A DNA stretch of 39,115 nucleotides from Candidatus Stahliibacteriota bacterium (GTDB taxonomy: Bacteria; Hydrothermota; Tepidihabitantia; B3-TA06), in contig JAUVJT010000001.1 in assembly GCA_030592225.1 (NCBI GenBank), positions 1-39,115 on the forward strand, read 5' to 3'. This document shows, piece after piece, positions 2,520 through 34,916 of the stretch. The first letter of the stretch is position 1. Each line of letters opens with the position of its first letter. Under the pieces are notes generated by a model. The model made no database searches. It saw only the letters and a list, made by a program, of their open reading frames with translations, and had not been told where the DNA came from. A program made the position numbers and the translations under genes.

Positions 2520-2637
2520 TATTGATTCCTCCTTGAAAGGTTTGTTTTTGCACAAGGGGTTTTTCTTAACTTTCGCCCTTTGTTTTTGTTTATTTATGTT
2601 TCACCTCCATTGTCACAGTTTAGACTCTTTGATTTGA

Positions 2638-2665
2638 AGTATAGGGTTTTTCCCGAACTTGTCAA
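2638..2665 (-). promoter_or_regulatory. sigma70-type promoter for the secreted-protein gene
   Basis: On the minus strand, TTGACA (2665-2660), 16 nt spacer, TATACT (2643-2638). This gives a leader of about 115 nt to the ATG at 2519. Confidence 0.5.
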
Positions 2666-2950
2666 GCCCCACAAACAGACGCTTAAGGCAAACTCGAAAA
2701 CATCCCTATCCAGATTGTTCAAAGAGCGCATTTTGCTTATCTAAAAACCTAGCAAGTTGCGTGCCAGGCGACCTCCCGCTGGCCAACCTGCGCAATTGCG
2801 ACGCTTGGTTTTGTGGGGCGATTTTTACGCCGCGCCCAAATGTCACTTTAGTGAATCTGAGTTATAGAAATCCTTAATTCCTGCTGCACCCCGGTTATGA
2901 TCCTTGCGTTCGCAAAAGAAATTAATCTGAGGCGAACAAAGGCTCCTGTC

Positions 2951-2979
2951 TTGACTTTCATGCCCGGATAAGGTAGACT
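2951..2979 (+). promoter_or_regulatory. sigma70-type promoter of the glycosylation operon (leaderless geometry)
   Basis: TTGACT (2951-2956), 17 nt spacer, TAGACT (2974-2979). The -10 ends 6 nt before the ATG at 2986 and no Shine-Dalgarno is present. Confidence 0.5.
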
Positions 2980-2985
2980 TAACGT

Positions 2986-3894: not shown

Positions 3895-3898
3895 CCCC

Positions 3899-6057: not shown

Positions 6058-8617
6058 ACCGGCTAAGCCGGCGCCTAGCAGAGAAATTCCCCACAAACCG
6101 GTTCAAATCGGCTGGGGCTGGATTCTTCTTGGACTGGCAGTGGTTGTTTTTATCCTTTTCATCAACACCCTGGCAAAAGGACACTTCATTCATGGGTCCG
6201 ATCAAATGATCTCCGGCTACATGTTCAAGACCTTTGCCCAGGAGAACTTGCGGGCAACCGGGGCTTTCCCGTTGTGGAACCCCTATATCTTCGGCGGCCT
6301 TCCCTACGTTGACGCCCTGCACGGCGATGTGTTCTACGTCACTGCCTTACTCAGACTCATCTTTCCGGTAGGCACGGTGATGGCGCTGGTGTTCGTACTG
6401 CAGATAATCGTGGCCGGAATCTTCACCTATGGATTTTTGAGAACCCTGAAACAGGACAAGCTGGTGGCCATTTTCGGTGCGGTTGCATACATGTTTACCT
6501 GCGTTATCGTATCGCTGGTAGACGCCGGGCACGACGGCAAGGTGATAGTGGCCTCGTTCCTGCCCGCAGGCATGTTTTTGATACAAAAGGCGTTCGACCC
6601 GGAGACCAGACGCAAATTGATGTACTTCGCGCTCCTGGCATTAGTGATAGGCCTGGCATTGCTGTCGCCGCACGTCCAGATGACCTACTACATGATGATG
6701 ATGATGGCCTTCTACATCATCTTTCTGTTCTTTGCGCTGGGAATCAAGGAAAAGAAATGGGGTTTTGCCACAAAGAGCCTGGGGCTGTCATTCGGGTCAT
6801 TAGCCTTGGGTTTTGCGATTTCCGCCATTCAATTCCTGCCCTCCATAAGTTATCTGGCCTTCTCCCCTCGCGGCGCGGGCGGACGAGGCTGGGTGTGGAA
6901 CACCTCGTGGTCATTACCTCGACTGGAATTGTTCGATTTGTTTAACCCCCGATTTTCAGGAATATTAGGAAACTATTGGGGAGCCAACGCCTTCAAGCAG
7001 CATTCCGAGTACTTCGGCATAATCATCCTGGCTTTGATGATAGTGGGCATAATAATGGCATGGAAACGCAGGGAAACCAAGTTTTTCTCTTTCTTTGCAT
7101 TGTTCGGCATACTGATGGCCCTGGGCGGCAATACACCGTTCTACCGCATTCCTTATACCATCTTCCCGCTTCTTAACGGCTTCCGCGCCCCGGCCATGAT
7201 ATTCTTCACCGTTAGTTTCTGTGCAGTGGTACTGGCTGCACTGGGATTGCAGGCCGCCCTTAACAGGCCGCTCAGGCTTCCCAAGCACAAGAAGAAACCC
7301 GATCCTGCAGTCATTGTATTTACGGTCGTGGCCGGGCTTTTGATGATCTTTGGATTATGGTCTTCTTTAGCCCCCGATGGTTTTGCCAATTTCATCTCCT
7401 CCATTGCCGCAGGCAACCTGGTAAAAATCCATGGGGATGCACGGGCAGGCGCCCTGCTTGCCAGGATGCGAACCAACGTGCCCAATGCCGAGGGCGGCTT
7501 CTGGCTGGGATTCTTGTTCACCGCTGCAGGACTGGCGACGGTTTTTCTGTGGAGGAAATTCCGCAAGCTCCAGTGGCTGTGGGGGCTTTCGCTTACCGCC
7601 CTGGTGTTTCTGGACCTGTGGCTGGTTGACAGGCATTTCGTGAACGTAGTAAGGGACGGGGCGGGCAACCCCGCCTCTGCCGAACAACTGTACGCGCCGG
7701 ACGAGGTTGTATCCTTCCTGGGGAAACAGCAGGGGCCCTACCGGGTCTTTGGTCTGCAGTTCCAGGGACAGGACATTTACCGCAATGACGATTACCTCAT
7801 GCTCTACCGCATCCAGTCGGTGGGCGGCTACCACGGCAACCAGCTGGGTCGCTACCAGGAATTCATAGACGTACCCGGCGAACCCCGCACCATCATGTTC
7901 CGTAATCCCCGCAACCTGCGCTATCCCGCGTTCCTTAAGATGCTGGATATTCAGTACCTCATCGCTCCACGGCTGCCCGACACCAGTCAACTTGCAGCCT
8001 ACTCCCCCCAGGACCGACAGATAATAATGGCGCTGACCCTGGAGCTGGCCCCATGGCTCGACTCAACCCACAGCGACTTCCGTCCGGTTTATGCAGGCCA
8101 GCGCTATGAGATATACCGGAATGAAGGCAGGCATGCTCGCGCCTGGTTGTGTTCGGAAGTTGAGGTAATTGAGCCGGACGATGCCATACTTGCACGAATG
8201 CGGCGCGCCGACTTCGACCCCCACCGCACCGTGATCTTTGAGGAACGGCCTGAAGGCTGGAAACCGTCTGTGGATACCTCTTCACCCGGCCAGATCAGGA
8301 TTACGAGATATGAACCCAACGTGATAGAGATAGCCGCGGACGTAAGGAAACAATCGGCCCTGGTGTTATCGGAGAACTGGTATCCTTATTATAGAGCCTG
8401 GGTGGACGGAGTTGAACAGAAGGTCTACCGGGCCGACTACACGTTGAGAGCGGTGACGCTTGAGCCGGGTTCCCACCAGGTGGTGTTCCGATTCAAATCC
8501 CCTTACGTGACCGCCGGTGTGTGGATTACGTTCCTCTCTCTGGGACTCGTTGGACTGGTGGTCGCGCTATCTTTGATTAAAACCAAGGGAAAGAAATCGA
8601 AGAAATTCGATGCTTGA
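6035..8617 (+). CDS. YfhO-family membrane protein (GT-C-like glycosyltransferase)
   Basis: ATG at 6035 follows GGAGG (6026-6030). There are many TM helices, the N-terminal region has FPLWNPYIFGGLPY, and the C-terminal soluble part has ENWYPYYRAWVDG...YRADYTLRAVTLEPGSHQVVFRF followed by a final TM helix. This layout is typical of YfhO. Confidence 0.75.
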   Translation: MAKKRKHKPAKPAPSREIPHKPVQIGWGWILLGLAVVVFILFINTLAKGHFIHGSDQMISGYMFKTFAQENLRATGAFPLWNPYIFGGLPYVDALHGDVFYVTALLRLIFPVGTVMALVFVLQIIVAGIFTYGFLRTLKQDKLVAIFGAVAYMFTCVIVSLVDAGHDGKVIVASFLPAGMFLIQKAFDPETRRKLMYFALLALVIGLALLSPHVQMTYYMMMMMAFYIIFLFFALGIKEKKWGFATKSLGLSFGSLALGFAISAIQFLPSISYLAFSPRGAGGRGWVWNTSWSLPRLELFDLFNPRFSGILGNYWGANAFKQHSEYFGIIILALMIVGIIMAWKRRETKFFSFFALFGILMALGGNTPFYRIPYTIFPLLNGFRAPAMIFFTVSFCAVVLAALGLQAALNRPLRLPKHKKKPDPAVIVFTVVAGLLMIFGLWSSLAPDGFANFISSIAAGNLVKIHGDARAGALLARMRTNVPNAEGGFWLGFLFTAAGLATVFLWRKFRKLQWLWGLSLTALVFLDLWLVDRHFVNVVRDGAGNPASAEQLYAPDEVVSFLGKQQGPYRVFGLQFQGQDIYRNDDYLMLYRIQSVGGYHGNQLGRYQEFIDVPGEPRTIMFRNPRNLRYPAFLKMLDIQYLIAPRLPDTSQLAAYSPQDRQIIMALTLELAPWLDSTHSDFRPVYAGQRYEIYRNEGRHARAWLCSEVEVIEPDDAILARMRRADFDPHRTVIFEERPEGWKPSVDTSSPGQIRITRYEPNVIEIAADVRKQSALVLSENWYPYYRAWVDGVEQKVYRADYTLRAVTLEPGSHQVVFRFKSPYVTAGVWITFLSLGLVGLVVALSLIKTKGKKSKKFDA

Positions 8618-8692: not shown

Positions 8693-9430
8693 TTAGAGTC
8701 CTGACCATACAAAGGGCTTAAAAGCGGTCGACTTGTTGGAGAGTTTGTCGCCGATCCCCTTGTTAGTGGTAACCTTTATCACATAGGCTTCTACGACCGC
8801 GGGAGCGGACAGTCCGAACGTATATGAACCTTCTGTGTCAGATGCATCAAGGGAAACATCAATCGGTCCCTCCACTGGATCAGTCAGAGCAAGTAGTAAC
8901 TCAAGGTCGGGATCGGTAAGGTCTATTTCTTCACCGTCGAAGATAGAGACTTTATAGTTCAGGTAATCTTCGTCCTCGTAGGTGAGCTTATCCCAGGTGA
9001 CTACAATCGAGGTTTCTCTCAGGGTATCCTGCGGCGCAGTTATCTCGAGTATAGGCAGCGTTTTCACCGTTATCTCATCGTACTCGGTCAGGTCGTTACC
9101 ATCCAGCAGCCACAGGGTGTAGTTGTAGGTGAAATTCGGTGTCAGGGTATCTACATCCAGATACATCGTACTTTGCACTTCAATCTCGACGGTGTCGCGT
9201 TTATCTGAACCATCCCGACCGAACACCGCCTGCTCGTCGGACACACCGGTGCCTGTGAACACGTACTCGATATCAACGAACGCGAACTCCTTGGAGCCGC
9301 CTATCGCCTGGACGGAGTTGATGCGGGAAGCGGATTTGGCCACACCCTTGGTTAGCGCATCTTTTATGAAATCACAACCCAGTACAGCCAGGGCAATTAA
9401 CAGGACAGGTAAAACCTTTTTTATGTTCAT
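8693..9430 (-). CDS. Lipoprotein of unknown function (Ig/Fn3-like repeats likely)
   Basis: MNIKKVLPVLLIALAVLGC carries a lipobox (LAVLG|C). RBS AGGAGG lies upstream. The protein is acidic and beta-rich, with TSIVVTWDKL..YKVSIF Fn3-like strands. Confidence 0.7.
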   Translation of the reverse strand: MNIKKVLPVLLIALAVLGCDFIKDALTKGVAKSASRINSVQAIGGSKEFAFVDIEYVFTGTGVSDEQAVFGRDGSDKRDTVEIEVQSTMYLDVDTLTPNFTYNYTLWLLDGNDLTEYDEITVKTLPILEITAPQDTLRETSIVVTWDKLTYEDEDYLNYKVSIFDGEEIDLTDPDLELLLALTDPVEGPIDVSLDASDTEGSYTFGLSAPAVVEAYVIKVTTNKGIGDKLSNKSTAFKPFVWSGL

Positions 9431-9495
9431 TCGACCTCCTTAGTCAAACACATCTTACCTGAGACGGAACGCGTGTCAACCCCTTGAGGGAAACT

Positions 9496-9523
9496 TTGAC
9501 AGCTTCCGAATTGTGGTTACAAT
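9496..9523 (+). promoter_or_regulatory. sigma70-type promoter of mfd (near-leaderless)
   Basis: TTGACA (9496-9501), 16 nt spacer, TACAAT (9518-9523). Only 9 nt (CCCTTCTCC, no SD) separate the -10 from the ATG at 9533. Confidence 0.5.
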
Positions 9524-9532
9524 CCCTTCTCC

Positions 9533-12454
9533 ATGAGCAAACATCTTACCAAGAGAGACCTCTACGAACGCTGGCTCCAGGCTGAGACTTTAAGGAAGTT
9601 TCTGGAAGCAGAACCGGCTCCTGTCTCCGTCTCAGGATTACCCGGTGCGGCGCGCGCCTTCTTTCTTGCGGCATTGAAGGAACACGGCAGGGAAATACTA
9701 TATCTTGCCAAAGACGATGACCAGGTGGAAACGCTGCTGCTGGATTTGCAAAACCTGGGCCGCGCCGGGGTGCTAGCCATCCGCAGAAGCCATGACCTCA
9801 ATGTACTGCGGCTCGACTCCAGCGTTCCCCGATTAATTATATGCTCGGTGACGTTAGCACAACAGGGCATGGCATGGAAGCAAAGCCGCCCCGCGCTTTA
9901 TTTTGAACCCTCAGGTGAGGTTGAGCTTGACGCTTCAGTGAGCTGGCTTGTCGACAATGGTTTCCAGCGCGAGACCCTGGTGACCGAACCTGCAGAGTTC
10001 GCCCAGAGAGGAGGGATTCTGGATGTATTCTCTCCGTTATGGCAGGAACCGGTAAGGATCGAGTTTGAGGGTGACCGGGTGCTGTCCATAAGACGATTCG
10101 ATCCCCTTACCCAGCGTTCCAGGGAAATCATTTCGTCTATTGACGTCATTTCCAACAAGCCGCCTGACGGCGAGGAGGGCGAGGACGGCGGTCCAACGAT
10201 TCGAGAATTCCTGGGTGATTCGCTGGTAATCTCGGCAATGCCTGAGGTTTCACCCGATATATTGATTACCGATCGTGCAGCGGCGTTCGATTTCGGCTTC
10301 GCGCCGGCAAAGAAGGTGCTGGGGCATTTCGACGGCCTACAGGAGCTTGAATCACAGGGACTTGAGCTTTTCTTTGCTACGGATCCGGAACACGGCCAAC
10401 ACTACCTTTCGCATCATTTGAAGAATTTCAATCTGGTGGATGCCGCGCTTTCCGCAGGCTGGGTGGATAGAATGGCTGGCTACGCCGTCTTCACCGACAA
10501 CGAGTTGTTCGGCATCCGGCACAAACGCAGAATACCCAGGCACTTCAAGGGAATACCCCGCGACGCCCTGCACGAGCTTCATAACGGCAACTACGTGGTT
10601 CACATAGATTACGGCATCGGAGTATTCCAGGGCCTGGAAAGATTAAAGATAGGCGAGCAGGAAAAGGAGTTTCTGAAGATTTCCTACGGGGGAACCGATG
10701 TGCTTTACCTGCCTGTTGAGAATCTGGGATTGCTTGATCGCTACATTGGAGCTGAGGGCAGAGCGCCGCGTGTCAATCGGCTGGGTTCACAGCGCTGGAA
10801 GCTTGTCCGCAAGCGCGCCCGCAAGGCGGCATACGATTACGCGCAGGAGCTTTTGGCCCTGTACGCCAGACGCTCGGTGCTCCGCGGTCATTCGTTTGGA
10901 CGTCATCCTGACGAGATGGAGTGGATTCAGTTGACCTTTCCCTACGAGGAAACAGCCGATCAGCTCAGCGCCATTAAGTCCATCGCGGCCGATATGGAAT
11001 CGGTAAATCCCATGGACCGCCTGGTTTGCGGCGAGGTGGGCTACGGCAAAACCGAGGTCGCTCTGCGCGCCGCGCTGAAGGCGGCCCTGGATTCAAAACA
11101 GGTGGCCATGATGGCGCCGACCACCATCCTGGCTCTGCAGCACTACCGCACCTTCAAGCAGCGACTCAAAGATCTCCCAATAAGAATCGGGATGCTCTCG
11201 CGATTCGTTTCTTCGACAGACCGGCGCAAGGTGCTGGCCGATCTCGATGCAGGCAAGATAGACGTACTCATAGGAACCCATGCCCTGATTGCGGATTCGG
11301 TCTCCTACAACGACCTGGGACTTTTGATAATAGACGACGAGCACCGCTTCGGGGTAAGACAAAAGGAGAAGATTCGCCGGAAGAAAGCCGAGGTGGATAC
11401 CCTGACGCTCACCGCCACCCCCATCCCCCGCACCCTTTACATGAGCCTGGTCGGGATAAGGGACGTGTCCCGCATAGAGACCCCGCCGGTGGGACGCAAG
11501 GACGTGCAGACCCAGGTATCTGGCTGGTCTGATGAACTGGTTGCCGAATGGGTGCTGCGCGAGCGTTCAAGGGGCGGGTTGACGCTCTTTGTTCATAACC
11601 GGATAGAAACCATTGATTCGGTGCGCCGCAGGCTGGAGAGACTGCTGCCCGGACTCCGGATGCAAGTAGCCCACGGCCAGATGCCGGAGCGCGAGCTTGC
11701 AAGCATCTACGATACCTTTCTGGAACACAAAACCGACGTGTTGATTGCCACCGCCATCCTGGAGGCGGGGATCGATATACCTGATTTGAATACCATCATC
11801 ATTGACAGGGCCGATTTGTTCGGGCTTGCCGATCTGCATCAACTGCGCGGCCGGGTGGGCAGAAGCCGGCGTCAGGGTTACGCCCTGTTCATAGTGCCCT
11901 CAAAAACCACTGACGAGGCAAAAAAACGCCTGGCCGCCATCCGCGCCTACGCCGAGCTGGGCGCCGGATACAGATTAGCCGTCAGGGACATGGAGATGCG
12001 CGGGGTGGGCAACCTGTTGGGTACGGAACAGCACGGCCACGTTAACTCTATAGGCTTCACCCTGTACACCAAACTGCTCGCCGAGGCGGTGGCCAGACTG
12101 AAGGGCGAGGAGTGGCTCGATGAGCCGCTGCTGGAGATTGAGCACGGAGCCTGGCTGCCGGAGAGTTATATTGATGATTCGGCGGAGCGCGTGTCGCTGT
12201 ACAAACGGCTGCTCTCGGTTGAGGATGAACGAAAGGTGGATGAGTTAAAGGCCGAGCTTGAAGACCGCTTCGGCAAAATGCCCGCCTCCGCTTTGAAGAT
12301 ATTGGACATCGCGCGCGTAAGGGCGCTTGCAAGAAAGAAGAAGGTAACCAAGGTCAATTTCCGTAACGACACCTGGTTCATATTAACCGCCGAGCGTACC
12401 ACAAGAGGAACCGGGAAGTTTGAGACGCTGCTGGATCAACTAAGGAGAATGTAG
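9533..12454 (+). CDS. mfd: Transcription-repair coupling factor Mfd
   Basis: RNAP-interacting region [17 protein letters not shown]. Superfamily-2 motifs [36 protein letters not shown] and [10 protein letters not shown]. The C-terminal TRCF domain is present. At 973 aa it is compact, with a shortened N-terminal module. Confidence 0.95.
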
Positions 12455-15133: not shown

Positions 15134-15161
15134 ATTGACAAATCGTCGGTTTCGCCTACAC
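15134..15161 (+). promoter_or_regulatory. sigma70-type promoter of the phosphorelay/EF-G operon
   Basis: TTGACA (15134-15139), 16 nt spacer, TACACT (15156-15161, overlapping a TATAAT at 15161-15166). Confidence 0.4.
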
Positions 15162-15206
15162 TATAATTCTAGTAATTTTGAATATCCAGCCATTCAAGGA
15201 GGTCTG

Positions 15207-16748
15207 GTGAACGCCAAAGATAAACGCATGCAGGAACTCATCGAAGCCGCCAATCTCAAGTCGCAGTTTCTTGCCAACATGAGTCATGAGCTGCGTACTC
15301 CCTTGAACTCCATTATCGGCTTCAGCGAACTCCTCATGGACGGCCTGGTGGGTGAACTCGCCGACAAGCAGGGTCATTACATGAAAATCATCCATTCCTC
15401 CGGCATAAACCTTCTGCGGCTGGTCAATGACATCCTGGACTTTTCGAAACTCGAGGCGGGCATGCTTGAGGTTTTTAATGAACCCACATATCTAGGGGAG
15501 GTGGTCAAAGACGTTTTGCGTGCCTACGACGTGGTCTCGGAACAAAAGGATCTCGAGATAAAGGTAGACATCCCTGCGGATATGCCGCCCATGATCACTG
15601 ACAGGCGCAAACTGGCACAGATAATTGACAACCTTTTGTCCAACGCCATAAAATTCACCGAACATGGCCGGGTGGAGATTGCGGCCAGACGTGAGGGCGA
15701 GCAGTTTATACTGAAGATTGCAGATACCGGCATAGGTATCGAGTCGCAGGATATGCCTCACATCTTTGATCCGTTCCAGCAGGTTGATTCATCAACCACG
15801 AGGCGTTACGAGGGAACCGGACTCGGCCTGGCCCTGGTTAAGAAATTGCTGGAGATTCAGAATGGAGCAATAGAAGCCGAAAGCACGCCCGGGCACGGGT
15901 CCATATTCACGTTCAAACTGCCGTTCGATGAGTTCAAACCGGAAGAGGTATCTTCAAAAGAGGAGTTGGTCCATAAGCTTCCCGAACCAGGTGATCGCCC
16001 CATACTGGTAGTGGAAGACAATCCTCTGGCGGCGAACCTGATGTCTGTGTGGCTTTCGGAAGCAGGCTACAAGGTTGAGGTGGCATCCACCGGAGAGGAA
16101 GCCCTGCAAAAGGCGGTGAGCATTGATCCGGCCGTCATCACCCTGGACATTCTGCTTCCCCAGATGGATGGCTGGCGGGTGCTGCATCGCCTCAAGGAGA
16201 TACCCAAAACCAAGAATACCCCAATCATTGTGGTTTCTATAGTTGAGGACCGGAGCTTCGGTCTCTCACTGGGGGCGGTGGATTACATGATCAAGCCTGT
16301 GTCTCGCACCAATCTCATCTCCAAGATAGAAAAACTCTCCAGAACCAGAGGCAGGCCGCACCGGATACTGGTGATTGACGACAATCCGGCGGACGTAAGT
16401 TTAATAGAGGAAATACTTCGCCTGGACGGCTACGAGGTACTCAAGGCTTCAGGAGGTGTGGAAGGCTTGAAAACGGCGCGCAGCGAGAAACCCGACCTGG
16501 TGATTCTCGACCTTATGATGCCCGACCTGGACGGTTTTGACGTAATGAGACTTCTTGCCTCGGATGAGACGACGAGAGAATTGCCGGTCATCCTCTTTAC
16601 TGCCAAGGACTTAACCGAAATAGATCGCGCCAATCTGGGTGAGAATATCCACGAAATCTTCGGCAAGGCACAGCTGAATAGAGACTCGCTTCGCGCCAAG
16701 ATCGCAGATCTTCTCGGTCAGGGGAAATTAAAAGAAGGCAACCGATGA
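15207..16748 (+). CDS. Hybrid sensor histidine kinase (coiled coil - HisKA - HATPase_c - REC - REC) with no recognisable sensor or TM domain
   Basis: H-box FLANMSHELRTPLNSI, N-box DNLLSNAIKFT, G-boxes DTGIGI / GTGLGLALV. Two receiver domains follow (ILVVEDNP..TLDILLPQMDG and ILVIDDNP..ILDLMMPDLDG). I prefer the GTG at 15207, 4 nt after AAGGAGG (15196-15202). The track start at 15135 and the ATG at 15228 are alternatives. Confidence 0.9.
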   Translation: MNAKDKRMQELIEAANLKSQFLANMSHELRTPLNSIIGFSELLMDGLVGELADKQGHYMKIIHSSGINLLRLVNDILDFSKLEAGMLEVFNEPTYLGEVVKDVLRAYDVVSEQKDLEIKVDIPADMPPMITDRRKLAQIIDNLLSNAIKFTEHGRVEIAARREGEQFILKIADTGIGIESQDMPHIFDPFQQVDSSTTRRYEGTGLGLALVKKLLEIQNGAIEAESTPGHGSIFTFKLPFDEFKPEEVSSKEELVHKLPEPGDRPILVVEDNPLAANLMSVWLSEAGYKVEVASTGEEALQKAVSIDPAVITLDILLPQMDGWRVLHRLKEIPKTKNTPIIVVSIVEDRSFGLSLGAVDYMIKPVSRTNLISKIEKLSRTRGRPHRILVIDDNPADVSLIEEILRLDGYEVLKASGGVEGLKTARSEKPDLVILDLMMPDLDGFDVMRLLASDETTRELPVILFTAKDLTEIDRANLGENIHEIFGKAQLNRDSLRAKIADLLGQGKLKEGNR

Positions 16749-17125
16749 GCCGGATACTGGTGATTGAAGACAACGAAGGAAATCTGGAGCTTATAAAGGT
16801 AGTTCTGGAAATGGCGGGGCACGAAGTGATAGGTGCGGCGAGCGCTGACGTTGGATTGTTAGCGGCCAGAAAAGCCCGTCCCGATCTTATACTTATGGAT
16901 ATGCATCTGCCCGGAATGGACGGCTACGAGGCGACGCGAATAATAAAGAGAGACGAGACCTTAAAGGATATTCCGGTAATCGCGGTCACCGCTATCATCG
17001 ATCACAAGGATGAAGAAGAGGTTCGCAATTGCGGCTGCAATGGATTCATCGCCAAACCCATAGATACCCGCAAGCTGCCTGATCAGATAGCCGGTTTCAT
17101 CGAAGAAAGGACGCAGGGAGCATGA
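16745..17125 (+). CDS. Single-domain response regulator (CheY-like receiver)
   Basis: ILVIEDNEGN...LILMDMHLPGMDG...AVTA...KP receiver signature. The ATGA start overlaps the kinase stop. Confidence 0.9.
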   Translation: MSRILVIEDNEGNLELIKVVLEMAGHEVIGAASADVGLLAARKARPDLILMDMHLPGMDGYEATRIIKRDETLKDIPVIAVTAIIDHKDEEEVRNCGCNGFIAKPIDTRKLPDQIAGFIEERTQGA

Positions 17126-18738
17126 ACGAGCAAAAACCCATCCCCCTCATACTGGTAGTTGATGATGATCCGCATCTTTTGAACCTTCTGGATCTGCGCC
17201 TTGCCGAACAGAAATTCAACGTAATGCTGGCTTCCTCCGCCCGGGAAGCGCTAAAGAAAGTAGAAGACAGGCAGCCGGACATAGTTATCGCCGACATCAT
17301 GATGCCCGGTATGGACGGCTATGAGTTGTGTAAACACGTCCGGGCAAACGAAAAACTGCACAACACCCCCTTTATATTCCTGTCCGCCCTGGCCGACACC
17401 CAGGATAAGGTCAAGGGTCTGCGGCTGGGTGCGGACGATTACCTTACAAAACCGTTCGAGTTCCACGAGCTTCTGGCACGAATAGAGATTCTTCTTGACC
17501 GCTACTCGCGCTACCAGGAGACCTTTGAAACCGATACCGAGATTGCCACCCAGGGGAAGATTGAGGATCTGGGGGTGATTGATCTTTTGCAGATGCTTTC
17601 CTTCGGACAAAAAACGGGCGAGGTGCATCTTGAGTCGGATGAGGAGAAAGGCTTTCTTTACCTGATGACCGGTAAGCTCATAGCTGCAACCTACGGGAAC
17701 AAACACGGAAAAGCCGCTCTGCCCAGCCTTCTTTCATGGACCCACGGCAAATTCAGCGTCAGGCTTACCGAGAGTCTCTCCGTGATCCCCACCATCGAGC
17801 ACCAGACCGACGAGGCCATCTTTGAAGCCTTAAGGGAACTGGACGAGGTCGAACGCATCAAGCAGGAACTCGATGAAAAATCGATACCGGTGTTTTCTAC
17901 AAAACCCGCTCCCGACACAAACCTTCACAAAATTCTGCTTCAGCTCGTAGACGGCGATCGCAATCTCGGCGAAGTCTTGCTGGCAAGCCCGTTCTCCGGC
18001 TTTGAGACCGCCAAGGGAATAAAGAAGTTGATGGCCGAAGGGCATATCAGTTTGGGCTCCGTGGGAACTCCGCCTCTACCCGGGGAGGCCCCGGAAACTC
18101 CTGCTGAGACTTCGGAGCCGACCCTGTCTGAAGCGGCCCGGGAATGGGAGCCTTTGATGCCCGGGGAAGTAAAAGCGGGCGATGAGGCTGCTATAGAGAA
18201 AACCGAGGTAAGGAAAGATGAAGCCCCGAAGGAAGAGCCTTGCGCTCCAACGGAAATCGAGACCCCTGGGCCGCAACCAAAGCCTCAAGAGTTCAACCTG
18301 ATCGTTATCGGTACGGACCGCGATTCCCGCAATACCTTTATCCATGCGCTCTCCGGAGAAGAGGAAGCGGAAGATAAAAGGGAGAAGGTGCTGAATTTCG
18401 GAAGAATTATCGTTGCCGGCCACCAGCTTAATCTGTACGGACTGCCCGGAGCAAAGCGCTTCGCCCCGCTCTGGCAGACCTTTATCCACAGGGTGCACGG
18501 AATGATACTTCTGGCTGACGCCGACATTGACGAAGAGGTGGAAAACCTGCGATTTGCGTCCTCCCTCCTGGGGCCGCGTATCAGCGGACCTAAGATTGTA
18601 ATAAACACCAATCCCACCCGGCCGGATATGGATTTCGATTCCGAAACGCATGGGGTTGAGATTATTACCTGCCTGCCTGCCGATCGGCCCAAAGCGAAAG
18701 AAATCACCAACCGGCTGCTTTCACAACTTCTCCGTTAA
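17122..18738 (+). CDS. Response-regulator fusion: REC + DUF4388/PATAN-like domain + Pro/Glu-rich linker + MglA/COG2229-like small-GTPase domain with degenerate nucleotide-binding motifs
   Basis: REC: [32 protein letters not shown]4388-like: [59 protein letters not shown]-terminal: [44 protein letters not shown], which is collinear with COG2229 GTPases. The ATGA start overlaps the upstream stop. Confidence 0.75.
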
Positions 18739-18745
18739 TTGCAAA

Positions 18746-20803
18746 ATGGATCTTGCGAAATTACGTAATATAGGTGTAGCCGCACACATAGACGCGGGCA
18801 AGACCACCACCACCGAGAGGGTACTTTACTACGCCAAGCGCATACATCGTATGGGAGATGTTGACGACGGGTCGGCCACCATGGACTGGATGCAGCAGGA
18901 ACGGGAGCGCGGAATTACCATAACCTCGGCGGCGACCATTGTGGGGTGGAAGAATTACCGGATAAATATAATCGACACGCCCGGGCACGTGGATTTCACC
19001 ATCGAGGTGGAGCGTGCGCTCAAGGTGCTGGACGGCGCGGTGGTGGTGTTTTGTGCAGTGGGCGGGGTGGAGCCGCAGTCCGAGACGGTATGGCGCCAGG
19101 CGAACCGGTATCATATCCCGCGCATCGCGTTCGTGAATAAGATGGACCGGGCGGGCGCGGATTTCGAGCGGGTGGTAGACATGATGGGAGCGCGTTTTCC
19201 CCAGACCCCCATCCCCATACAGATACCCTGGGGCGCGGAACAGGATTTCGCCGGGGTGATTGACCTTGTGGGATGGCGCGCCATCCGCTGGAAGGACGAG
19301 ACGTTGGGAGCCGAGTTCGTGGCGGAGGAGATACCTGTGGAGTTAGCGCGGGAGGCACAGCGCTGGAGGGAAATTCTGGTAAACAAGGCAGGCGAGGAAA
19401 ACGACAGGATAGTGGAAGATTTCATGGCGGGAAAGCAGACAGAGGAGACGGTGCTCAGGGAGGCTCTGCGCAAGCTAACCCTTAAGAACGAGATAATTCC
19501 GGTGCTGTGCGGCTCGGCCCTCAAGAACAAGGGGGTGCAGCCGCTTCTGGATGCGGTTATAGATTACCTGCCGTCGCCGCTCGACGTACCGTCCATACAA
19601 GGGCACGATCCTGCCGACGAGGCAAAGACCATATGCAGACGTGCCGATCCCGAAGAGCCTTTCTCAGCCCTGGTCTTCAAACTGACCCATTCCCCGCACA
19701 TGGGACCCCTGGCGTTCACCCGGGTCTACTCCGGTGTGCTGGAAAGGGGAACGACCGTCAAAACTTTTCCGGGCGACAACCGCTCGCGCGCCACCAAGCT
19801 GCTCCTGGCCCACTCCAATCACTTCGAGGAAGTACCCAGGCTCCAGGCCGGGGAGATAGGGTTGATCGCCGGGCTGCGGCACGTGACCACCGGAACCACC
19901 CTGTGCGATCAGAAGCATCCTATCGTATACGAACTCATGCGCTTTCCTGAACCGGTCATCCACCAGTCAGTCGAACCGCGCACCACGGCTGATGAGGCAA
20001 AGCTGGGCAAGACTCTGGAAATTCTTCAGTTGGAAGACCCCACCTTTACGGTACGAACCGACCCGGAAACCGGTCAACTACTCATAAGCGGTATGGGTGA
20101 GCTGCACCTGGAGATTTTGGTTGACCGCTTGAAGCGCGAGTTCAGAGTACCGGTAAGGACAGGTAAACCGCAAGTTTCGTATCGAGAGACAGTTACCCGG
20201 AAAACGGAACACTCCTTTACCTTCTCCCGCTTAATTGGCCAGAAGACCCATTACGCCGGCGTAACGTTGAAGATGGAACACCACGAAGGGGGCAAAGACG
20301 TAAGGATAAAACTTACCCTCCCCATCCCCAGAGAATTCCTGGATGCCATGCGTCAGAGCCTTACCGATTCGTTCAGCGCCGGCCCCATGCTGGGCTACCC
20401 TATAACCAACGTGCGAGTGACGGTTACCGACGTTGACTACCGGGAGGAGGATGCCTCGGACATCGCGTTCAAGGCGGCGGCGTCCCATGCGTTTACCGAA
20501 GCGTATCAGAACGCCTCGCCGGCCCTGCTTGAGCCTGTAATGGACGTGGAGGTCATCACCTCCGATGAGTACATGGGAGACGTGATTGCAGACCTGGGTA
20601 CGCGCCGGGGCAAGGTAGAGCTGGTTGAGAACATACAGGAACACAAGCTCATAAAGGCCTTTGTGCCGCTTGCGGCAAGCTTCGGGTATGCCACCACTTT
20701 AAGATCGTTGACCCAGGGACGCGCCAGCTTTGCCATGCACTTTTCCCACTACGCCGTACTGCCCGAAGAGCTGCGCAAAAAGCTGTTCGATTACATGGTG
20801 TGA
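18746..20803 (+). CDS. fusA: Elongation factor G family GTPase (divergent paralogue, not in a str-operon context)
   Basis: G1 [18 protein letters not shown]2 [10 protein letters not shown]3 DTPGHVDF, G4 NKMDR, G5 GSALKNKGV. All five EF-G domains are collinear. The ATG at 18746 lies 8 nt after the upstream stop; the track start at 18650 overlaps the previous gene. Confidence 0.9.
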
Positions 20804-20813
20804 TTAATATCAG

Positions 20814-21089
20814 CTAGGTTAAACTCTCTCCCCAATCAAACCGCAGTTCAATGCCCTGGGCATTCAGTTTTTCCTTAAGGTCTTTGTACCGCTTAAAGAA
20901 TTCACACGTCTTGGAAATCTTCCACTCGCAATAAGGGGTGCATTTTGATACGTCCTTATAGCCAACGTGGCAGTGCTTTTCGAAAAGAAAGTCACGCAGT
21001 GCATTAACCGCATCGTCAAACTGCTTCTTGGCCGGAGCGAACTTGACGATTTCCTGAATTAAACTTTCTACTCTTTCATCACCTGACAT
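20814..21089 (-). CDS. Small Cys-rich hypothetical protein (91 aa)
   Basis: ATG 7 nt after the tmk stop, with GGAG embedded (TGAGGAGTAAATG). C-H-x9-C-x3-C-x7-C spacing (KHCHVGYKDVSKCTPYCEWKISKTCEF). The region is AT-richer. I recognise no family. Confidence 0.5.
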   Translation of the reverse strand: MSGDERVESLIQEIVKFAPAKKQFDDAVNALRDFLFEKHCHVGYKDVSKCTPYCEWKISKTCEFFKRYKDLKEKLNAQGIELRFDWGESLT

Positions 21090-24403: not shown

Positions 24404-25573
24404 ATGCGGACGTATGAGCGGACACACCCGTGGCTGACATTCACTCTTGATCTGCGTAAGGCTGACCATCGGTTATGGTTGGCTCTTGGGGAAGCTCAGG
24501 CCAAATGCGAATATATCGCAGGGGTGCCTTTGAGACCTGCAACAGCCACAAACCTTCACATGATTTATTTAGCCAAAGGGGCGCTGGCAACCACAGCAAT
24601 TGAGGGTAATACCCTTTCTGAAGAAGAAGCTCTCAAGCTTGTGCAGGGGCGTTCGGATCTTCCTCCCTCGAAGAAGTATCTTGCTCAGGAAGTGGAAAAC
24701 ATAGTTAAGGCCTACACTCAGATATTCAACAATCTCTTTGTTAAGGAAGAATCCCATGCTTTTCATCTGGAAAAGATAAAAGAGTTTAACCGCCTCGCCC
24801 TGAAGAACCTAGAGTTGCCGGAAGAAGTTAAGCCTGGGGAAATAAGAAATTACTCTGTCGGGATTGCCCAATACAGGGGAGCACCGCCCGAGGATTGCGA
24901 GTATCTTTTGAAGCGTTTGTGCGATTGGTTAAACAAAGAGAAAAATAGAGTTCCTAAGGGTCAGGAAATCGCTTTCGGCCTGATTCGAGCGATCATCGCC
25001 CATCTTTATCTGGCCTGGATACACCCCTTTGGCGACGGAAATGGTAGAACCGCCAGGTTGATGGAGTTCCAAATTCTTCTGGCTGCTGGCGCTCCGACAT
25101 TAGCCGTCCATTTACTTAGCAATCACTATAATCTCACCCGGCAGGAATACTACAGGCAACTGGATCGTGCCTCAAAATCAGGTGGGGATATTTTTCCATT
25201 CCTCCAATATGCTCTGCAAGGTTTTTTAGACGGTCTGGATGAACAGATGCAGGTGATTCAAATACAAGTTCTAAATGTATCCTGGAAAGACTACATCTAC
25301 GAAGCTTTTAAGGATCAACACAGTGAATCGGCTAGAAGAAGACGTAACCTGGCACTGGATTTGTCTTACAGGGCTGAACCAGTGCCGATATCGGGAATCA
25401 GACATATCAGCCCCGGTATAGCCGAGGCCTATGCAGGAAAGACGCACAAGACAATTACGCGTGATCTTAATTCGCTTGCAGAAATGGGTCTGGTAGAGCA
25501 GACACCGGAAGGGATTCGTGCTAAACGTGAAAAGATGCTGGCTTTTTTACCCAAACGAAGAGCAGACATCTAA
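24404..25573 (+). CDS. Fic family protein (class II, internally autoinhibited) with a C-terminal winged-helix domain
   Basis: Fic motif IHPFGDGNGRTARL (HxFx[DE]GNGRxxR). N-terminal inhibitory motif TTAIEG ([ST]xxxE[GN]). The C-terminal KTITRDLNSLAEMGLVEQ is wHTH-like. RBS AGGAGG at 24392-24397. Confidence 0.9.
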   Translation: MRTYERTHPWLTFTLDLRKADHRLWLALGEAQAKCEYIAGVPLRPATATNLHMIYLAKGALATTAIEGNTLSEEEALKLVQGRSDLPPSKKYLAQEVENIVKAYTQIFNNLFVKEESHAFHLEKIKEFNRLALKNLELPEEVKPGEIRNYSVGIAQYRGAPPEDCEYLLKRLCDWLNKEKNRVPKGQEIAFGLIRAIIAHLYLAWIHPFGDGNGRTARLMEFQILLAAGAPTLAVHLLSNHYNLTRQEYYRQLDRASKSGGDIFPFLQYALQGFLDGLDEQMQVIQIQVLNVSWKDYIYEAFKDQHSESARRRRNLALDLSYRAEPVPISGIRHISPGIAEAYAGKTHKTITRDLNSLAEMGLVEQTPEGIRAKREKMLAFLPKRRADI

Positions 25574-25639: not shown

Positions 25640-26260
25640 TTACTCCCAGGTTACTTCCCAGTAGCAGCCGTCGCCGCCTTCTTTCCAGCGGCAGGATTTT
25701 TCCTTAACCTTAACTTTAACTCCGCTTAACAGTTCGCATATCTTTTCCAACCACGAGCGGATCACGTAGCAGTGCAGCTTGCCTCCCTCGTAATCGAAAA
25801 GCACAAGCACCGCGTGTTTTGCCTTCTCGTCAACGGAAAGAACCTTGAATTCTCCACAATCCTTGAATCTTGACCACAGATGGGGTATCCTTGCCGCCAC
25901 CCTGGGCATGGGCAGTAAAGCAAGGCGAGTCTTGGGAGCCCCTCCCACGTCTGCATTGGCAAGAGCCGCCCCCAGGTCTTCAAGAACCTTGCCGTTCCCG
26001 CCGCCCAGATGTTCCGCAATGCTCTCGTAAACCTCGGTTAGATACTCCAGGGGATACCACGACCACCCTTCTCCCTGTGAAAGCACCCGCGCCACCGGAG
26101 GGCGCATCTGGGAGATAAACCGCTTATAACCATCTTCCAATTGTTCATCAAGCCATTGATTGATGGTGATAAATGAGTTGCCGCGAACATTTGCCAAGAA
26201 CTCTCCTACTCCTGCTCCATACCTTAATTTTCCGGACCAATCCGTACCAAGTATAAGCAT
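25640..26260 (-). CDS. Hypothetical protein, possibly a V4R / DUF2378-like ligand-binding fold
   Basis: Soluble 206-aa protein. The C-terminal ..EKSCRWKEGGDGCYWEVTWE resembles the C-x-G-x-x-C-x-F/W ending of V4R-type domains. The functional call is weak. Confidence 0.4.
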   Translation of the reverse strand: MLILGTDWSGKLRYGAGVGEFLANVRGNSFITINQWLDEQLEDGYKRFISQMRPPVARVLSQGEGWSWYPLEYLTEVYESIAEHLGGGNGKVLEDLGAALANADVGGAPKTRLALLPMPRVAARIPHLWSRFKDCGEFKVLSVDEKAKHAVLVLFDYEGGKLHCYVIRSWLEKICELLSGVKVKVKEKSCRWKEGGDGCYWEVTWE

Positions 26261-26395
26261 AGCAACATCCTGCGTATTGTCAAGTCCGTAAACTGCAATA
26301 ACCCGGTTTTAGTTTTCTGAATGTCATCGCTCTTGCGAGCGGCTTGCTGCATTACTACCCCTTTACCCGGGAGAATCTTCGGGTATAATCCCCCT

Positions 26396-26761
26396 ATGAG
26401 TTTACCGGAACGCCGAAGAGCGCTGCCGCGCTTGAGTCTGTTATCCAGACCCGTCATCATGTCCCTGGTTGTGCTTGCCGGGCTTATCTTCAGCCTTTAC
26501 CTCTTGCGCAAACAGCAGGCGGCTCTCGATGCAACGGACACGCTCCAGGTAAGCATGCAAGGACTCAAGCTGAACGGTAAAAAGATTTCTCTGCAGCAAG
26601 TGGAGAGGAAATACTCAACTGGCGCGGCGGCGCGGCGGCTGCACGTGGTTTTTGATTCCAATATGCCGTGGGGCCAAACCTGGGGCATCCGCGACACCCT
26701 GATGGCGCTGGCAAAAAACCAGGAGAACCTGACCATAACAGGGCTTGACGAGATAAGGTAG
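26396..26761 (+). CDS. Single-pass membrane protein of unknown function (weak ExbD/TolR-like C-terminal resemblance)
   Basis: MSLPERRRALPRLSLLSRPVIMSLVVLAGLIFSLYLL is a basic N-terminus plus one TM helix. I prefer the ATG at 26396 because TATAAT (26384-26389) ends 6 nt upstream, giving leaderless geometry. The track start at 26321 has no RBS. Confidence 0.5.
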   Translation: MSLPERRRALPRLSLLSRPVIMSLVVLAGLIFSLYLLRKQQAALDATDTLQVSMQGLKLNGKKISLQQVERKYSTGAAARRLHVVFDSNMPWGQTWGIRDTLMALAKNQENLTITGLDEIR

Positions 26762-27226: not shown

Positions 27227-28477
27227 GTGGAAAAACTAGGCATCTTGATATTCTTGCCGGTGTTTCTGTGGGCGCTTGAAACGGTAAACCTACTCAAGGA
27301 TCACAGTTTCGAGAAAGACAGCGAGGTGTGGGTTACTTCAGCTGGTAGTAAGTGGGCAGGTATAGGAGAGGATTCAGCAATCGTAAATAGACATGATTCC
27401 CAAAGTTCATATGATGGATCGTTTTCCGCTTCCGGAGATACGAGAATAACCCCAGCTTGGGTTGGAATGGGAGGATTCGATTCTGCAATGGTCGTTCAGA
27501 GTTTTGCGAATAAGAAGATAGAGGATTTGGATAGTCTGATTTGGAGTCAGAAAGTGGTGTGGAAAAATGATAGTCGTGCGCTTACAGGATTATTCGTGAT
27601 TGGTCTTTTTCTGGATGCTTCTTCTGAAAATTGGTTCCAGTGGGGATATTCATTTGAAAGCCCTGATTTTGATTTTGGCATCATAGATCGATGGCAGAGG
27701 GTGTCTTCCGATATGCCTGATGATACGTTGTGGAAGGAATACGCTCGTGACCTTCAAAAAGATCTGGCTGCTAGTCACGATTTTCAGATCCCCGTCGATT
27801 CCTTTTTGTTGCTTAATTGGGGATTCTGGGGATCTGCCACTTTCTGGTATGGCCAGAAGGTTTACTGGGATGATATACGCTTGATGGGTTATGCGGATTA
27901 CGACGTAGGGGTGAAGGAAATACTTTCCGGTGACTCGCTGGAGGCTGGCACGCCTTACCAGCCTGTGGCACGTATTAAGAACTTCGGTAGTGAGAACGCG
28001 GACAGCTTTTTGGTCATTGCCGAGATTAAGGACGGAGCATCTCTCATCTACGTAGACACCCTGCCGTGGTCTCTTGACTCCGACACCGAGGATACCGTCA
28101 CCTTCGCCGACTTCGACCCGCCCTTCACCGGGCCGTACAACCTGACTGTTAGAACCTTTGCCGAACCCGACGAGTGCGACGAAGACGACGAACTATCAAA
28201 GGAAATCGGGCACTCGTCTGTATCTGAAGTCACTCTACCCGACGGCCTCTCGCTTGAGGTGCGCTCCATTGCGTCACCCTTACAGGTCTCCTACTCCCTG
28301 CCCTACGGCGAATCCGGCACTCTGACCCTCTATGATGCCACGGGCCGCCGCGTGGAGCGGATGGAGGTCAGTCATTCCGGTAACACGGAGTTTGTCGATT
28401 TAGCATCAGGCACGTACTTCATCAAACTTGAGGCTGACGGTATATCCGTTGTAGAGAAAGCGGTTGTACTGCGGTAA
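27227..28477 (+). CDS. Secreted T9SS cargo protein: CBM4_9-like jelly-roll + CARDB-like domain + T9SS type A C-terminal sorting domain
   Basis: Signal peptide MEKLGILIFLPVFLWA. NLLKDHSFEKDSEVW...VYWDDIRL brackets a CBM4/9-like module. YDVGVKEI..PVARIKNFGSENADSF is CARDB-like. The C-terminal ..TLTLYDATGRRVERMEV..LASGTYFIKLEADGISVVEKAVVLR is a textbook Por/T9SS CTD. Confidence 0.85.
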   Translation: MEKLGILIFLPVFLWALETVNLLKDHSFEKDSEVWVTSAGSKWAGIGEDSAIVNRHDSQSSYDGSFSASGDTRITPAWVGMGGFDSAMVVQSFANKKIEDLDSLIWSQKVVWKNDSRALTGLFVIGLFLDASSENWFQWGYSFESPDFDFGIIDRWQRVSSDMPDDTLWKEYARDLQKDLAASHDFQIPVDSFLLLNWGFWGSATFWYGQKVYWDDIRLMGYADYDVGVKEILSGDSLEAGTPYQPVARIKNFGSENADSFLVIAEIKDGASLIYVDTLPWSLDSDTEDTVTFADFDPPFTGPYNLTVRTFAEPDECDEDDELSKEIGHSSVSEVTLPDGLSLEVRSIASPLQVSYSLPYGESGTLTLYDATGRRVERMEVSHSGNTEFVDLASGTYFIKLEADGISVVEKAVVLR

Positions 28478-28923: not shown

Positions 28924-29691
28924 ATGAGAGTAAGATTACCAAAAGGGGTGTGGGTTGTGGGATTATTTTTTGCAATAGCCGTCCCCGCAATGGCGGCAAG
29001 CGAGTATCCTGACGAATTGGGCTTCCTGGCCGACATCCCCACCCCCAAGTACCTTTCTGCAACCGCAACCCTTGCGTCTTTCGACTCCACAGGCAAAATG
29101 CTGGTTGAGCTGCCGGTTCAGTTTTACTGGGACGGAAAATCTCAAAAATACGCGATGGATATCCGGGGACCTGCCGGTGGGGCGAACATGTTCATGCTCG
29201 GAGTGGCCGATACCGTCTGGATGTATAACTTTATGCACGGCGTAATGCTCACCGCTTTCCGTAATCAAAGCTTCAGTTGGGCAACTAAACTGCCCTTTAC
29301 GGCTGAACATTTTCTGGCGCTGTTCAGCATTTTCCCCGATGGCTTCATCCGTATAGACTCCTTCCACATAGAAGATTCCCTGATCACAATCAAAAGCGAC
29401 AGAACTCTTTACTCTTTCGACCGCGAGAGCAAACAGCTGCAGAGTATACGGATTGGCAATACCGAAATGACATTCCGCGACTTTACAAAAACCAAAAAAA
29501 GGCTCTGGCCCAGGAAAATGATACTCAACCAGCCTCTCTTTACCCAGGGTACGGGAAGCGCCCGGATAAACATAGTTTCATTAAGCTTCAAACGTCAGCG
29601 GAAGGATAATTTGTTCGACGTCGAGCTTCCCCCCAATATGAAACGCGCATTCGATCTGCGCAACGTACCCCAGCCGCCCGACTCCGAATAA
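28924..29691 (+). CDS. Exported protein, possibly LolA/LolB-like (DUF4292-type) fold
   Basis: RBS AGGAGG. Signal peptide MRVRLPKGVWVVGLFFAIAVPAMA|A. The all-beta-looking body (..VELPVQFYWDGKSQKYAMDIRGPAG..SLITIKSDRTLYSFDRESKQLQSIRIGN..) is reminiscent of lipoprotein-carrier folds. The functional call is weak. Confidence 0.5.
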   Translation: MRVRLPKGVWVVGLFFAIAVPAMAASEYPDELGFLADIPTPKYLSATATLASFDSTGKMLVELPVQFYWDGKSQKYAMDIRGPAGGANMFMLGVADTVWMYNFMHGVMLTAFRNQSFSWATKLPFTAEHFLALFSIFPDGFIRIDSFHIEDSLITIKSDRTLYSFDRESKQLQSIRIGNTEMTFRDFTKTKKRLWPRKMILNQPLFTQGTGSARINIVSLSFKRQRKDNLFDVELPPNMKRAFDLRNVPQPPDSE

Positions 29692-31490: not shown

Positions 31491-31503
31491 AGGAGAGTGA
31501 AGG

Positions 31504-34915: not shown

Positions 34916-34916
34916 G

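Follow-up and report, generated by a model that had tools for sequence, protein, structure and literature searches.

RESULTS

We have found a bacterial pseudo-GTPase built into a two-component response regulator. It is encoded in DNA from a Candidatus Stahliibacteriota bacterium (assembly GCA_030592225.1, contig JAUVJT010000001.1, positions 1 to 39,115 of the forward strand); this whole stretch of 39,115 nt is called the window below. The gene at 17122–18738 (+ strand) codes for a 538-aa protein with an ATG start, in which a phospho-receiver domain (REC) and a PATAN (DUF4388) domain are joined through a Pro/Glu-rich linker to a C-terminal domain of Ras-like fold. This last domain has lost the motifs by which GTPases bind and hydrolyze GTP, and the residues that replace them are conserved across a family of orthologues. 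A first-pass annotation, made from the letters of the window alone, had called the same open reading frame (ORF) and proposed the same order of domains; the sections below give the evidence for each part.

The C-terminal domain has a Ras-like fold

The C-terminal domain is a G domain by fold. In a Pfam scan of the whole protein the only match besides REC and PATAN was a borderline one to Arf (residues 389–471); scanned alone, the last 153 residues matched Pfam Arf with E-value 1.4e-5 (25.1 bits, cutoff 22.3). Comparison with PDB chains by phmmer gave Arl8A/B, Arl2, Arl3 and Sar1 at E-values from 2e-5 to 1e-3, Arl8 being the best (2e-5), and a profile of eight family members improved the Arl8 match to 4.6e-7. 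Protein A, which headed the list of PDB profile matches, was rejected as a summed short-repeat artefact. The AlphaFold 2 (AF2) model of the domain alone has a predicted local distance difference test score (pLDDT) of 82.9 and a predicted template modelling score (pTM) of 0.80; in the full-length model pLDDT is about 88 for residues 389–537. The topology is β1-α1-β2-β3-α2-β4-α3-β5-β6-α5, which is the Ras order with helix α4 missing. A Foldseek search of PDB with this model produced >1200 matches at E-value of 1e-3 or less, and the top 50 are all small GTPases, including Arl8b, an Asgard Arf, Rab, Rho and Rheb (template modelling score 0.65–0.73, probability 1.0).

One could argue that the likeness to GTPases is coincidental and that the domain is some other three-layer α/β fold, flavodoxin-like or receiver-like. 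Matches to known families have modest E-values (1e-5 to 1e-7), and sequence identity to solved GTPases is only 12–19%. Still, the Pfam, PDB phmmer, PDB profile, exhaustive metagenome (see below) and Foldseek searches agree, all motifs, G1 to G5, come in collinear order, the β2-β3 hairpin and the order of the strands are typical of Ras-like domains, and not one of the 50 top fold matches is anything but a GTPase. We therefore regard a coincidence as highly improbable. The collinearity with small GTPases noticed in the first-pass annotation has been borne out, and the searches that could have spoken against a Ras-like fold (Pfam, phmmer, profile and Foldseek) all return one.

The nucleotide-binding motifs are replaced

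Motifs were compared in HMMER and MAFFT alignments. At G1, the protein reads GTDRDSRN in place of the P-loop GxxxxGK[ST]: the Gly before the Walker Lys has become Ser, the Lys has become Arg and the Thr has become Asn. The segment aligns to GLQYSGKTTF of Arl8 and to GPxxAGKTTF of intact relatives. Family members share the replacement pattern [DN]RxxR[ND]; in front of the Walker Lys position they have Ser, Ala, Glu, Leu or Phe instead of Gly, and at the first P-loop Gly they vary (G/S/A). At G2, EKVLNFG is aligned to TTVAMDFG of the intact relatives; switch I has lost about 10 residues and its Thr. At G3, YGLPGAKRF stands in place of LFGTPGQxRF; G440-L-P-G443-A444 retains the Gly and Pro but neither the Thr/Asp nor the catalytic Gln. 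At G4, INTNP (N495-T-N-P498) is aligned to NKQD, and the family reads NTNP or NTDP.

Set against Ras/MglA small GTPases, the domain thus has the fold and lacks G1, the G2 Thr, the G3 DxxGQ and the G4 [NT]KxD. A class i pseudo-GTPase in the scheme of Stiegler and Boggon has a G fold without G motifs and neither binds nor hydrolyzes nucleotide; its fold and motif loss would place the domain in this class. The losses of the P-loop, of the switch II residues (GLPGA in place of D/TxxGQ) and of NKxD (NTNP at G4) had been proposed earlier and all three hold; no other alignment brings back an intact P-loop, and the same degenerate motif is present in all orthologues. The proposal of a nucleotide-dead pseudo-GTPase is confirmed as regards fold and motif loss; that the domain does not bind nucleotide is what the motif loss predicts.

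The replacement motifs are conserved

The same replacements turn up in about 24 orthologue clusters (P0001, P0002, P0004, P0007, P0008, P0012, P0015 and ∼17 more). A word-indexed search with the domain alone led to just two short proteins; the family was recovered only by an exhaustive profile search and by a full-length query. In 22 orthologues R403, F406, N437, G440, P442, G443, F447, A448, W451, F454 and P498 are invariant, T496 is nearly so, and R400 and N404 are at least 90% conserved. Many columns are invariant in proteins that share only 25–35% identity overall. Nine close orthologues have mean pairwise identities of 0.78 for REC, 0.80 for PATAN, 0.39 for the helical module that follows PATAN, 0.07 for the linker and 0.59 for the G-like domain, where conservation peaks at R400/R403/F406 and at N437–W451. 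In the alignment, conservation is centred on the former P-loop and on switch II/helix α2, a face that normal small GTPases show to their regulators and effectors.

The same degenerate motifs are found in a standalone 161-aa pseudo-G protein (P0002, at 1007–1492 of contig L001), 46% identical. Its neighbours, an NYN-like fragment and a DNA methyltransferase fragment, are unrelated to the operon described below. The existence of this standalone copy shows that the pseudo-G domain can fold and serve on its own.

The domain might instead be a relic without function, in the course of decay from a fusion whose GTPase was once active: none of the catalytic motifs survives, and REC-PATAN proteins without the domain do exist (P0108 and P0133, about 315 aa). 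Decay is hard to reconcile with a domain identity of 0.59 next to a linker at 0.07, with conserved replacement motifs and many invariant columns at such low overall identity, with a standalone copy bearing the same motifs, or with the confident AF2 fold, and we give this explanation next to no credence. Since the replacement motifs are conserved and the domain is so much better preserved than the adjoining linker, we conclude that it is a pseudo-GTPase maintained by purifying selection.

Intact relatives point to the MglA lineage

Searched exhaustively with the profile, 1.84 billion representative proteins gave 63 matches, which include orthologues, chance repeat matches and intact G domains. 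Intact small GTPases with collinear motifs match the family profile at E-values from 1e-6 to 1e-4. They carry GPxxAGKTTF (G1), TTVAMDFG (G2), LFGTPGQxRF (G3) and NKQD or T[RH]QD (G4). GTPGQ together with a Thr in place of the G2 arginine finger is the signature of MglA groups 2–5 (Wuichet and Sogaard-Andersen, PMC4316618). With GTPGQxRF and a Thr-Thr G2 in its nearest intact relatives, the domain may reasonably be taken, as far as these alignments go, to descend from the MglA group 2–5 (GTPGQ) lineage. The nearest solved structures are Arf-like (Arl8) and not MglA, for the regulator and for its intact relatives alike. The MglA/COG2229 lineage named in the first-pass annotation is therefore upheld by the motifs of the intact relatives and finds no echo among the solved structures.

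With MglA groups 2–5 (among them COG2229 and CvnD of the actinobacterial conservons) the domain shares its fold, its collinear sequence and its place in bacterial signalling near kinases, in some lineages also near PATAN proteins. It differs from them in the replacement of G1, G2, the G3 Thr and Gln and G4, in the shortened switch I, in the deletion of helix α4, in its fusion to REC-PATAN in one chain and in the absence of an MglB/Roadblock gene nearby; by its motifs it would be unable to act as a GTP/GDP switch, by which the MglA family is defined.

Small G domains of the GTPGQ type found by the search occur as C-terminal modules of BLUF, TIR-HEAT, nSTAND1-TIR and KaiC-like proteins (P0057, P0031, P0042, P0022, P0043, P0055). 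In two of these proteins, P0043 (GPFRSGITTF) and P0022 (GRPQSGSTTF, FSIPSKSRF), the Walker lysine is independently absent, and its loss makes both further candidate bacterial pseudo-GTPases. P0030, considered as an intact PATAN-GTPase fusion on account of an N-terminus that resembles PATAN by eye, was rejected: Pfam finds no DUF4388 in it, and hhalign against the family PATAN profile gives a probability of 0.3. Also set aside were giant proteins (P0005 and others, E-values down to 1e-32), whose fibronectin-III repeat arrays match YKFNLYGVSGSKR repeatedly through a chance motif.

Distribution and a sister family of the Nitrospira type

Eight loci were detected when 185,579 species, each represented by one genome, were scanned: six are titled candidate division WOR-3 or Candidatus Stahlbacteria, and two are titled only ‘uncultured bacterium’. 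Nine further loci come from metagenomes. By these matches the family is confined to the candidate phylum WOR-3/Stahlbacteria. The single-chain arrangement, first taken to be unusual, is instead the standing feature of a conserved, phylum-restricted family with a fixed operon. In the source annotations the proteins are called no more than ‘response regulator’, ‘CheY-like’ or ‘OmpR family’; REC and PATAN are the only domains in the precomputed Pfam assignments.

The full-length search also finds REC-PATAN proteins of 438–462 aa with a C-terminal domain of their own, one of them from Candidatus Nitrospira bockiana. This domain is homologous to that of WOR-3 (hhalign probability 97.3%, E-value 1.9e-11 over 142 columns), and the shared architecture argues that it is older than WOR-3. 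Some Nitrospira-type proteins (P0155, P0114, P0163, P0172) keep Walker A, e.g. GTAGAGKS, GIARSGKS and GVLGSGKT; in others the Walker lysine is lost (GVSQSGAS), and P0144 has lost Walker A. All have a degenerate G3 (AVRAEKRF) and no NKxD. With Walker A kept in some members and lost in others, the two families display successive stages of motif loss.

These stages bear on another explanation, that the remodelled pocket binds a nucleotide or other anionic ligand (phosphate, a phosphorylated partner or a cyclic dinucleotide are candidates) without the canonical motifs and that the domain is a sensor, not a passive adaptor. The invariant R403, a conservative replacement of the Walker lysine, and R400 lie exactly at the old phosphate-binding loop, and the retention of GxxxxGK[ST] in some Nitrospira-type members would mean that the loss of nucleotide binding came late and may be incomplete. 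On the other hand, helix α4 is missing, as are NKxD at G4, the Asp/Thr and Gln at G3 and the Thr at G2; at G1 the Gly preceding the Walker Lys is substituted and the first P-loop Gly varies; and neither Pfam nor NCBIfam recognises a known ligand-binding motif. We judge such a ligand unlikely.

Layout of the regulator

The coordinates of the gene, of its domains and of the adjoining features are collected in Table 1. The receiver was matched by PF00072 at residues 10–122 (E-value 1e-30, 106.6 bits, cutoff 30.2) and PATAN by PF14332 at residues 144–243 (8e-17, 61.8 bits, cutoff 25), in agreement with the REC and DUF4388 domains called before; the PF14332 match covers 121 of the 122 profile positions and has E-value 1.3e-17 when the PATAN region is scanned alone. 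The phospho-acceptor set read from the receiver sequence is complete (D14/D15, D58, S88, K110), with D15, D58, S88 and K110 invariant and D14 at least 90% conserved in the 22 orthologues, and the receiver is predicted to be phosphorylatable.

The full-length AF2 model, built from 22 orthologues, separates five segments. The module after PATAN (pLDDT 80–89) has no Pfam match and may be called winged-helix-like from its secondary structure only. The linker is disordered in the model (pLDDT 29–36; about 30 for residues 315–384), which agrees with the Pro/Glu-rich low complexity seen earlier, and its identity among orthologues is 7%. Orthologues range from 471 to 587 aa in total length, a spread that comes mainly from the linker.

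In one metagenome contig of 797 bp (L002, positions 1–120) the PATAN/helical part ends at a TAG and the linker and pseudo-G domain continue in another frame; the break reflects an indel introduced in assembly or else a gene that is naturally split.

Table 1. Features of the four-gene unit and of the regulator encoded in it (positions in the window)
Feature	Positions	Strand	Basis or remark
Sigma-70-like promoter candidate TTGACA-16-TACACT for the four-gene unit	15135..15162	+	10/12 matches; consensus match only
Hybrid histidine kinase (HisKA, HATPase_c, REC, REC), no sensor domain	15207..16748	+	Pfam
Single-domain receiver protein, 126 aa	16745..17125	+	Pfam REC 7e-25
Response-regulator gene (REC - PATAN - winged-helix-like - linker - pseudo-GTPase)	17122..18738	+	ATG start, 538 aa
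Receiver domain, residues 9–134	17146..17523	+	Pfam and AF2 fold
PATAN/DUF4388 domain, residues 143–250	17548..17871	+	PF14332
Small β - three-helix - β module after PATAN, residues 255–312	17884..18057	+	AF2 full-length model
Disordered Pro/Glu-rich tether of variable length, residues 313–388	18058..18285	+	pLDDT, orthologue identity
Pseudo-GTPase domain, residues 389–538, Ras-like fold without helix α4	18286..18735	+	Sequence and structure matches
Former P-loop (G1), G397-TDR400-DS-R403-N404-TF406	18310..18339	+	Replaces GxxxxGK[ST]
Former switch II/G3, N437 to W451	18430..18474	+	Replaces LFGTPGQxRFxxMW; most conserved stretch of the domain
Former G4, N495-T-N-P498	18604..18615	+	Replaces NKxD
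Canonical-type elongation factor G	18746..20803	+	TIGR00484
Terminator-like hairpin after EF-G	20850..20864	+	Consensus match only; such sites not above shuffled expectation

The operon and its link to elongation factor G

The regulator is the third gene of a compact unit: a hybrid histidine kinase, a 126-aa receiver protein, the regulator and elongation factor G (EF-G). The kinase has Pfam matches to HisKA (5e-23), HATPase_c (9e-30) and two REC stretches (6e-43). Its listed ORF starts at a TTG (15135) that coincides with the TTGACA −35 box; a GGAGG box at 15198–15202 is followed by GTG at 15207, and the true start is probably this GTG or the ATG at 15228. ATGA overlaps join the kinase to the 126-aa receiver and the latter to the regulator.

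EF-G had been noted as the adjoining gene, and it is: its ATG at 18746 lies 7 nt past the stop of the regulator, with no terminator between the two genes. The listed 717-aa ORF has its start placed 96 nt too far upstream, within the regulator gene (18650–18745); orthologues place the start at ATG 18746 (MDLAKL...). The protein is a canonical EF-G (TIGR00484, 869.5 bits against a cutoff of 659.4; 724 bits to Thermus thermophilus EF-G versus 305 to EF-G2) with intact G motifs, including NKMD, and no extra domain or indel.

Wherever the sequence can be seen, WOR-3 loci contain the kinase-REC-regulator-EF-G block, while the genes outside it differ; one WOR-3 clade inserts a GAF kinase. At the junction with EF-G the genes overlap by 1 nt or are 6–12 nt apart, and the gap has no Shine-Dalgarno-like sequence (the window and loci L003, L004–L007, L010–L016 and L021–L028). 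Such tight junctions suggest that a housekeeping-type EF-G is translationally coupled to a signalling operon. The WOR-3 EF-Gs are 55–80% identical, and only 55% between two clades.

Outside WOR-3 the kinase stays and EF-G does not. A histidine kinase lies directly upstream of the homologue in every lineage: WOR-3, L008, L009 and the Nitrospira type. In L009 GroES-GroEL follows the homologue (1720–2430). The Nitrospira type has the order sigma-54 regulator, dCache kinase, ClpX, homologue (ClpX at 6650–7945 in L018 and L020); in L020 a PilA-type pilin gene (9350–9850) directly follows the homologue, and the sigma-54 regulator upstream with the dCache kinase is PilS/PilR-like. The immediate neighbours in the three lineages (EF-G; GroES/GroEL; ClpX) are all proteostasis or translation genes, which may be a coincidence.

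The constancy of the EF-G gene invites the explanation that the protein acts on or with EF-G, tuning elongation or EF-G expression, with the pseudo-G domain contacting EF-G or the ribosome. The adjacency holds in every WOR-3 locus with a visible downstream region, across clades as divergent in EF-G as those just mentioned and with different genes outside the block, and the junctions are tight, with no terminator and no obvious Shine-Dalgarno sequence. Yet EF-G itself bears no sign of a special partner in the form of an extra domain or indel, the distant relatives in L009 and of the Nitrospira type do without EF-G, the standalone P0002 is not beside EF-G, and the adjacency could be synteny inherited within one phylum. 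We know of no precedent for a Ras-like domain that binds EF-G. An action on EF-G is in our view quite improbable. We regard as a long shot, too, the wider proposal that a polarity-type GTPase module has been turned into a phospho-switched device, in which a frozen adaptor G domain, fused to PATAN and a receiver and translationally coupled to EF-G, would wire a two-component signal to elongation or to stoichiometric co-production of EF-G in WOR-3. If true, it would be a previously unknown link of environmental sensing to the ribosome via a dead Ras-like domain.

Other genes of the window and of the WOR-3 flanks

In one WOR-3 metagenome-assembled genome (L003, positions 1–7359) a second REC-PATAN protein, a sigma-54 response regulator and a 1744-aa multi-PAS/GAF kinase are encoded on the opposite strand, some 3 kb ahead of the operon; we found no counterpart of them in the window. 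These genes apart, neither the window nor the WOR-3 flanks examined (±10 kb around each locus) contain a gene for MglA, MglB/Roadblock, a second PATAN protein or an intact G domain.

Elsewhere in the window are unrelated genes for a Fic-domain protein, for one protein with a weak, sub-threshold match to the C-terminal sorting domain of the type IX secretion system, for two LVIVD-repeat proteins and for two adjacent radical-SAM enzymes (24404–25573, 27227–28477, 29712–33267, 33551–36278). Five ORFs have no Pfam match (195–773, 1245–2486, 25640–26260, 26321–26761 and 28924–29691).

DISCUSSION

We consider it probable, though well short of certain, that the protein is the output response regulator of a dedicated two-component operon, in which the tethered dead G domain serves as a nucleotide-independent adaptor under the control of phosphorylation. 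The phosphoryl group would come from the neighbouring hybrid kinase, and phosphorylation of the receiver aspartate, not GTP/GDP exchange, would act as the switch. Contacts of the PATAN module and the tethered pseudo-G domain, with one another or with a partner, may shift on phosphorylation. As a protein-binding module, the frozen G domain would use the surface of the former P-loop and of switch II/helix α2, to bind either the PATAN/helical module of its own chain (in cis) or another protein (in trans); in relatives, such a partner would be tied to the machinery of type IV pili and cell polarity.

This adaptor reading draws support from several sides. In Synechocystis, PATAN is an output domain that binds PilB1 and PilC (bioRxiv 10.1101/2021.06.11.447907). 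PATAN genes adjoin mglA/mglB genes (PMC4316618), the homologue in L020 lies next to pilA, and a cultured WOR-3 strain is piliated (PMC12285271). The first-pass annotation had named PATAN, Roadblock and MglA-like genes as neighbours in polarity and motility modules; the PATAN-mglA/mglB adjacency stands in the literature, and in the window itself no MglA, MglB or Roadblock gene accompanies the regulator.

Several observations weigh against the adaptor reading. The full-length model has no confident packing between its segments (pTM 0.39), so neither cis docking nor trans binding has structural support from it. No pilus, MglA or MglB/Roadblock gene was found in the window or the WOR-3 flanks, and the link to polarity and pili therefore comes from other lineages. 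The operon has no histidine-containing phosphotransfer (Hpt) protein. A pocket in which the Walker A Lys has become Arg, and in which two arginines are conserved, could yet accommodate an anionic ligand. Finally, an adaptor does not explain the invariant coupling to EF-G.

Among known systems, the PatA-type PATAN regulators (PatA, PixG, PixE, LsiR, TaxP1) come close in domain content. They likewise combine a receiver with PATAN, which is the protein-binding output, and their link to type IV pilus genes recurs in the Nitrospira-type sister family. Their order is PATAN then REC, whereas the WOR-3 protein has REC then PATAN; it also adds the helical module, a long tether and the pseudo-GTPase, comes from a different phylum and is not part of a chemotaxis-like system.

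RomR of Myxococcus xanthus is alike in layout: a receiver is followed by a proline-rich linker and an acidic tail, and the protein belongs to the MglA polarity module. RomR has neither PATAN nor a G-like domain and binds MglA-GTP through RomX; the likeness is one of layout, and we claim no homology beyond the receiver.

Eukaryotic class i pseudo-GTPases (CENP-M, the AAGAB psGD, p190RhoGAP pG1/pG2) have the G fold without the G motifs and work in protein-protein interaction (PMC12490416, PMC5593906). The domain described here, assigned to the class from sequence and model, resembles them in keeping the fold without the motifs; it differs in being prokaryotic, of independent origin and probably of the MglA lineage, and in residing within a two-component regulator.

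Each component of the protein is known. The combination, and a bacterial pseudo-GTPase within a response regulator, appear new in the literature and source annotations searched; the literature searched describes neither a REC-PATAN-G-like protein nor the domain. Pseudo-GTPases are an emerging class of pseudoenzymes, described almost wholly in eukaryotes, and the domain is a clear bacterial case. Its origin can probably be traced to a G domain of MglA groups 2–5, and the Nitrospira-type proteins that retain Walker A provide a graded series of decay. Since the pseudo-G domain sits inside a response regulator, its use can be tested with the standard tools of two-component signalling. The invariant, tight coupling to EF-G is an unexplained association in a phylum of which a cultured strain now exists. 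The family adds an unannotated output domain to the catalogue of response regulators and hints at a way in which PATAN and MglA-type proteins, so far linked only by the adjacency of their genes, may cooperate through physical contact.

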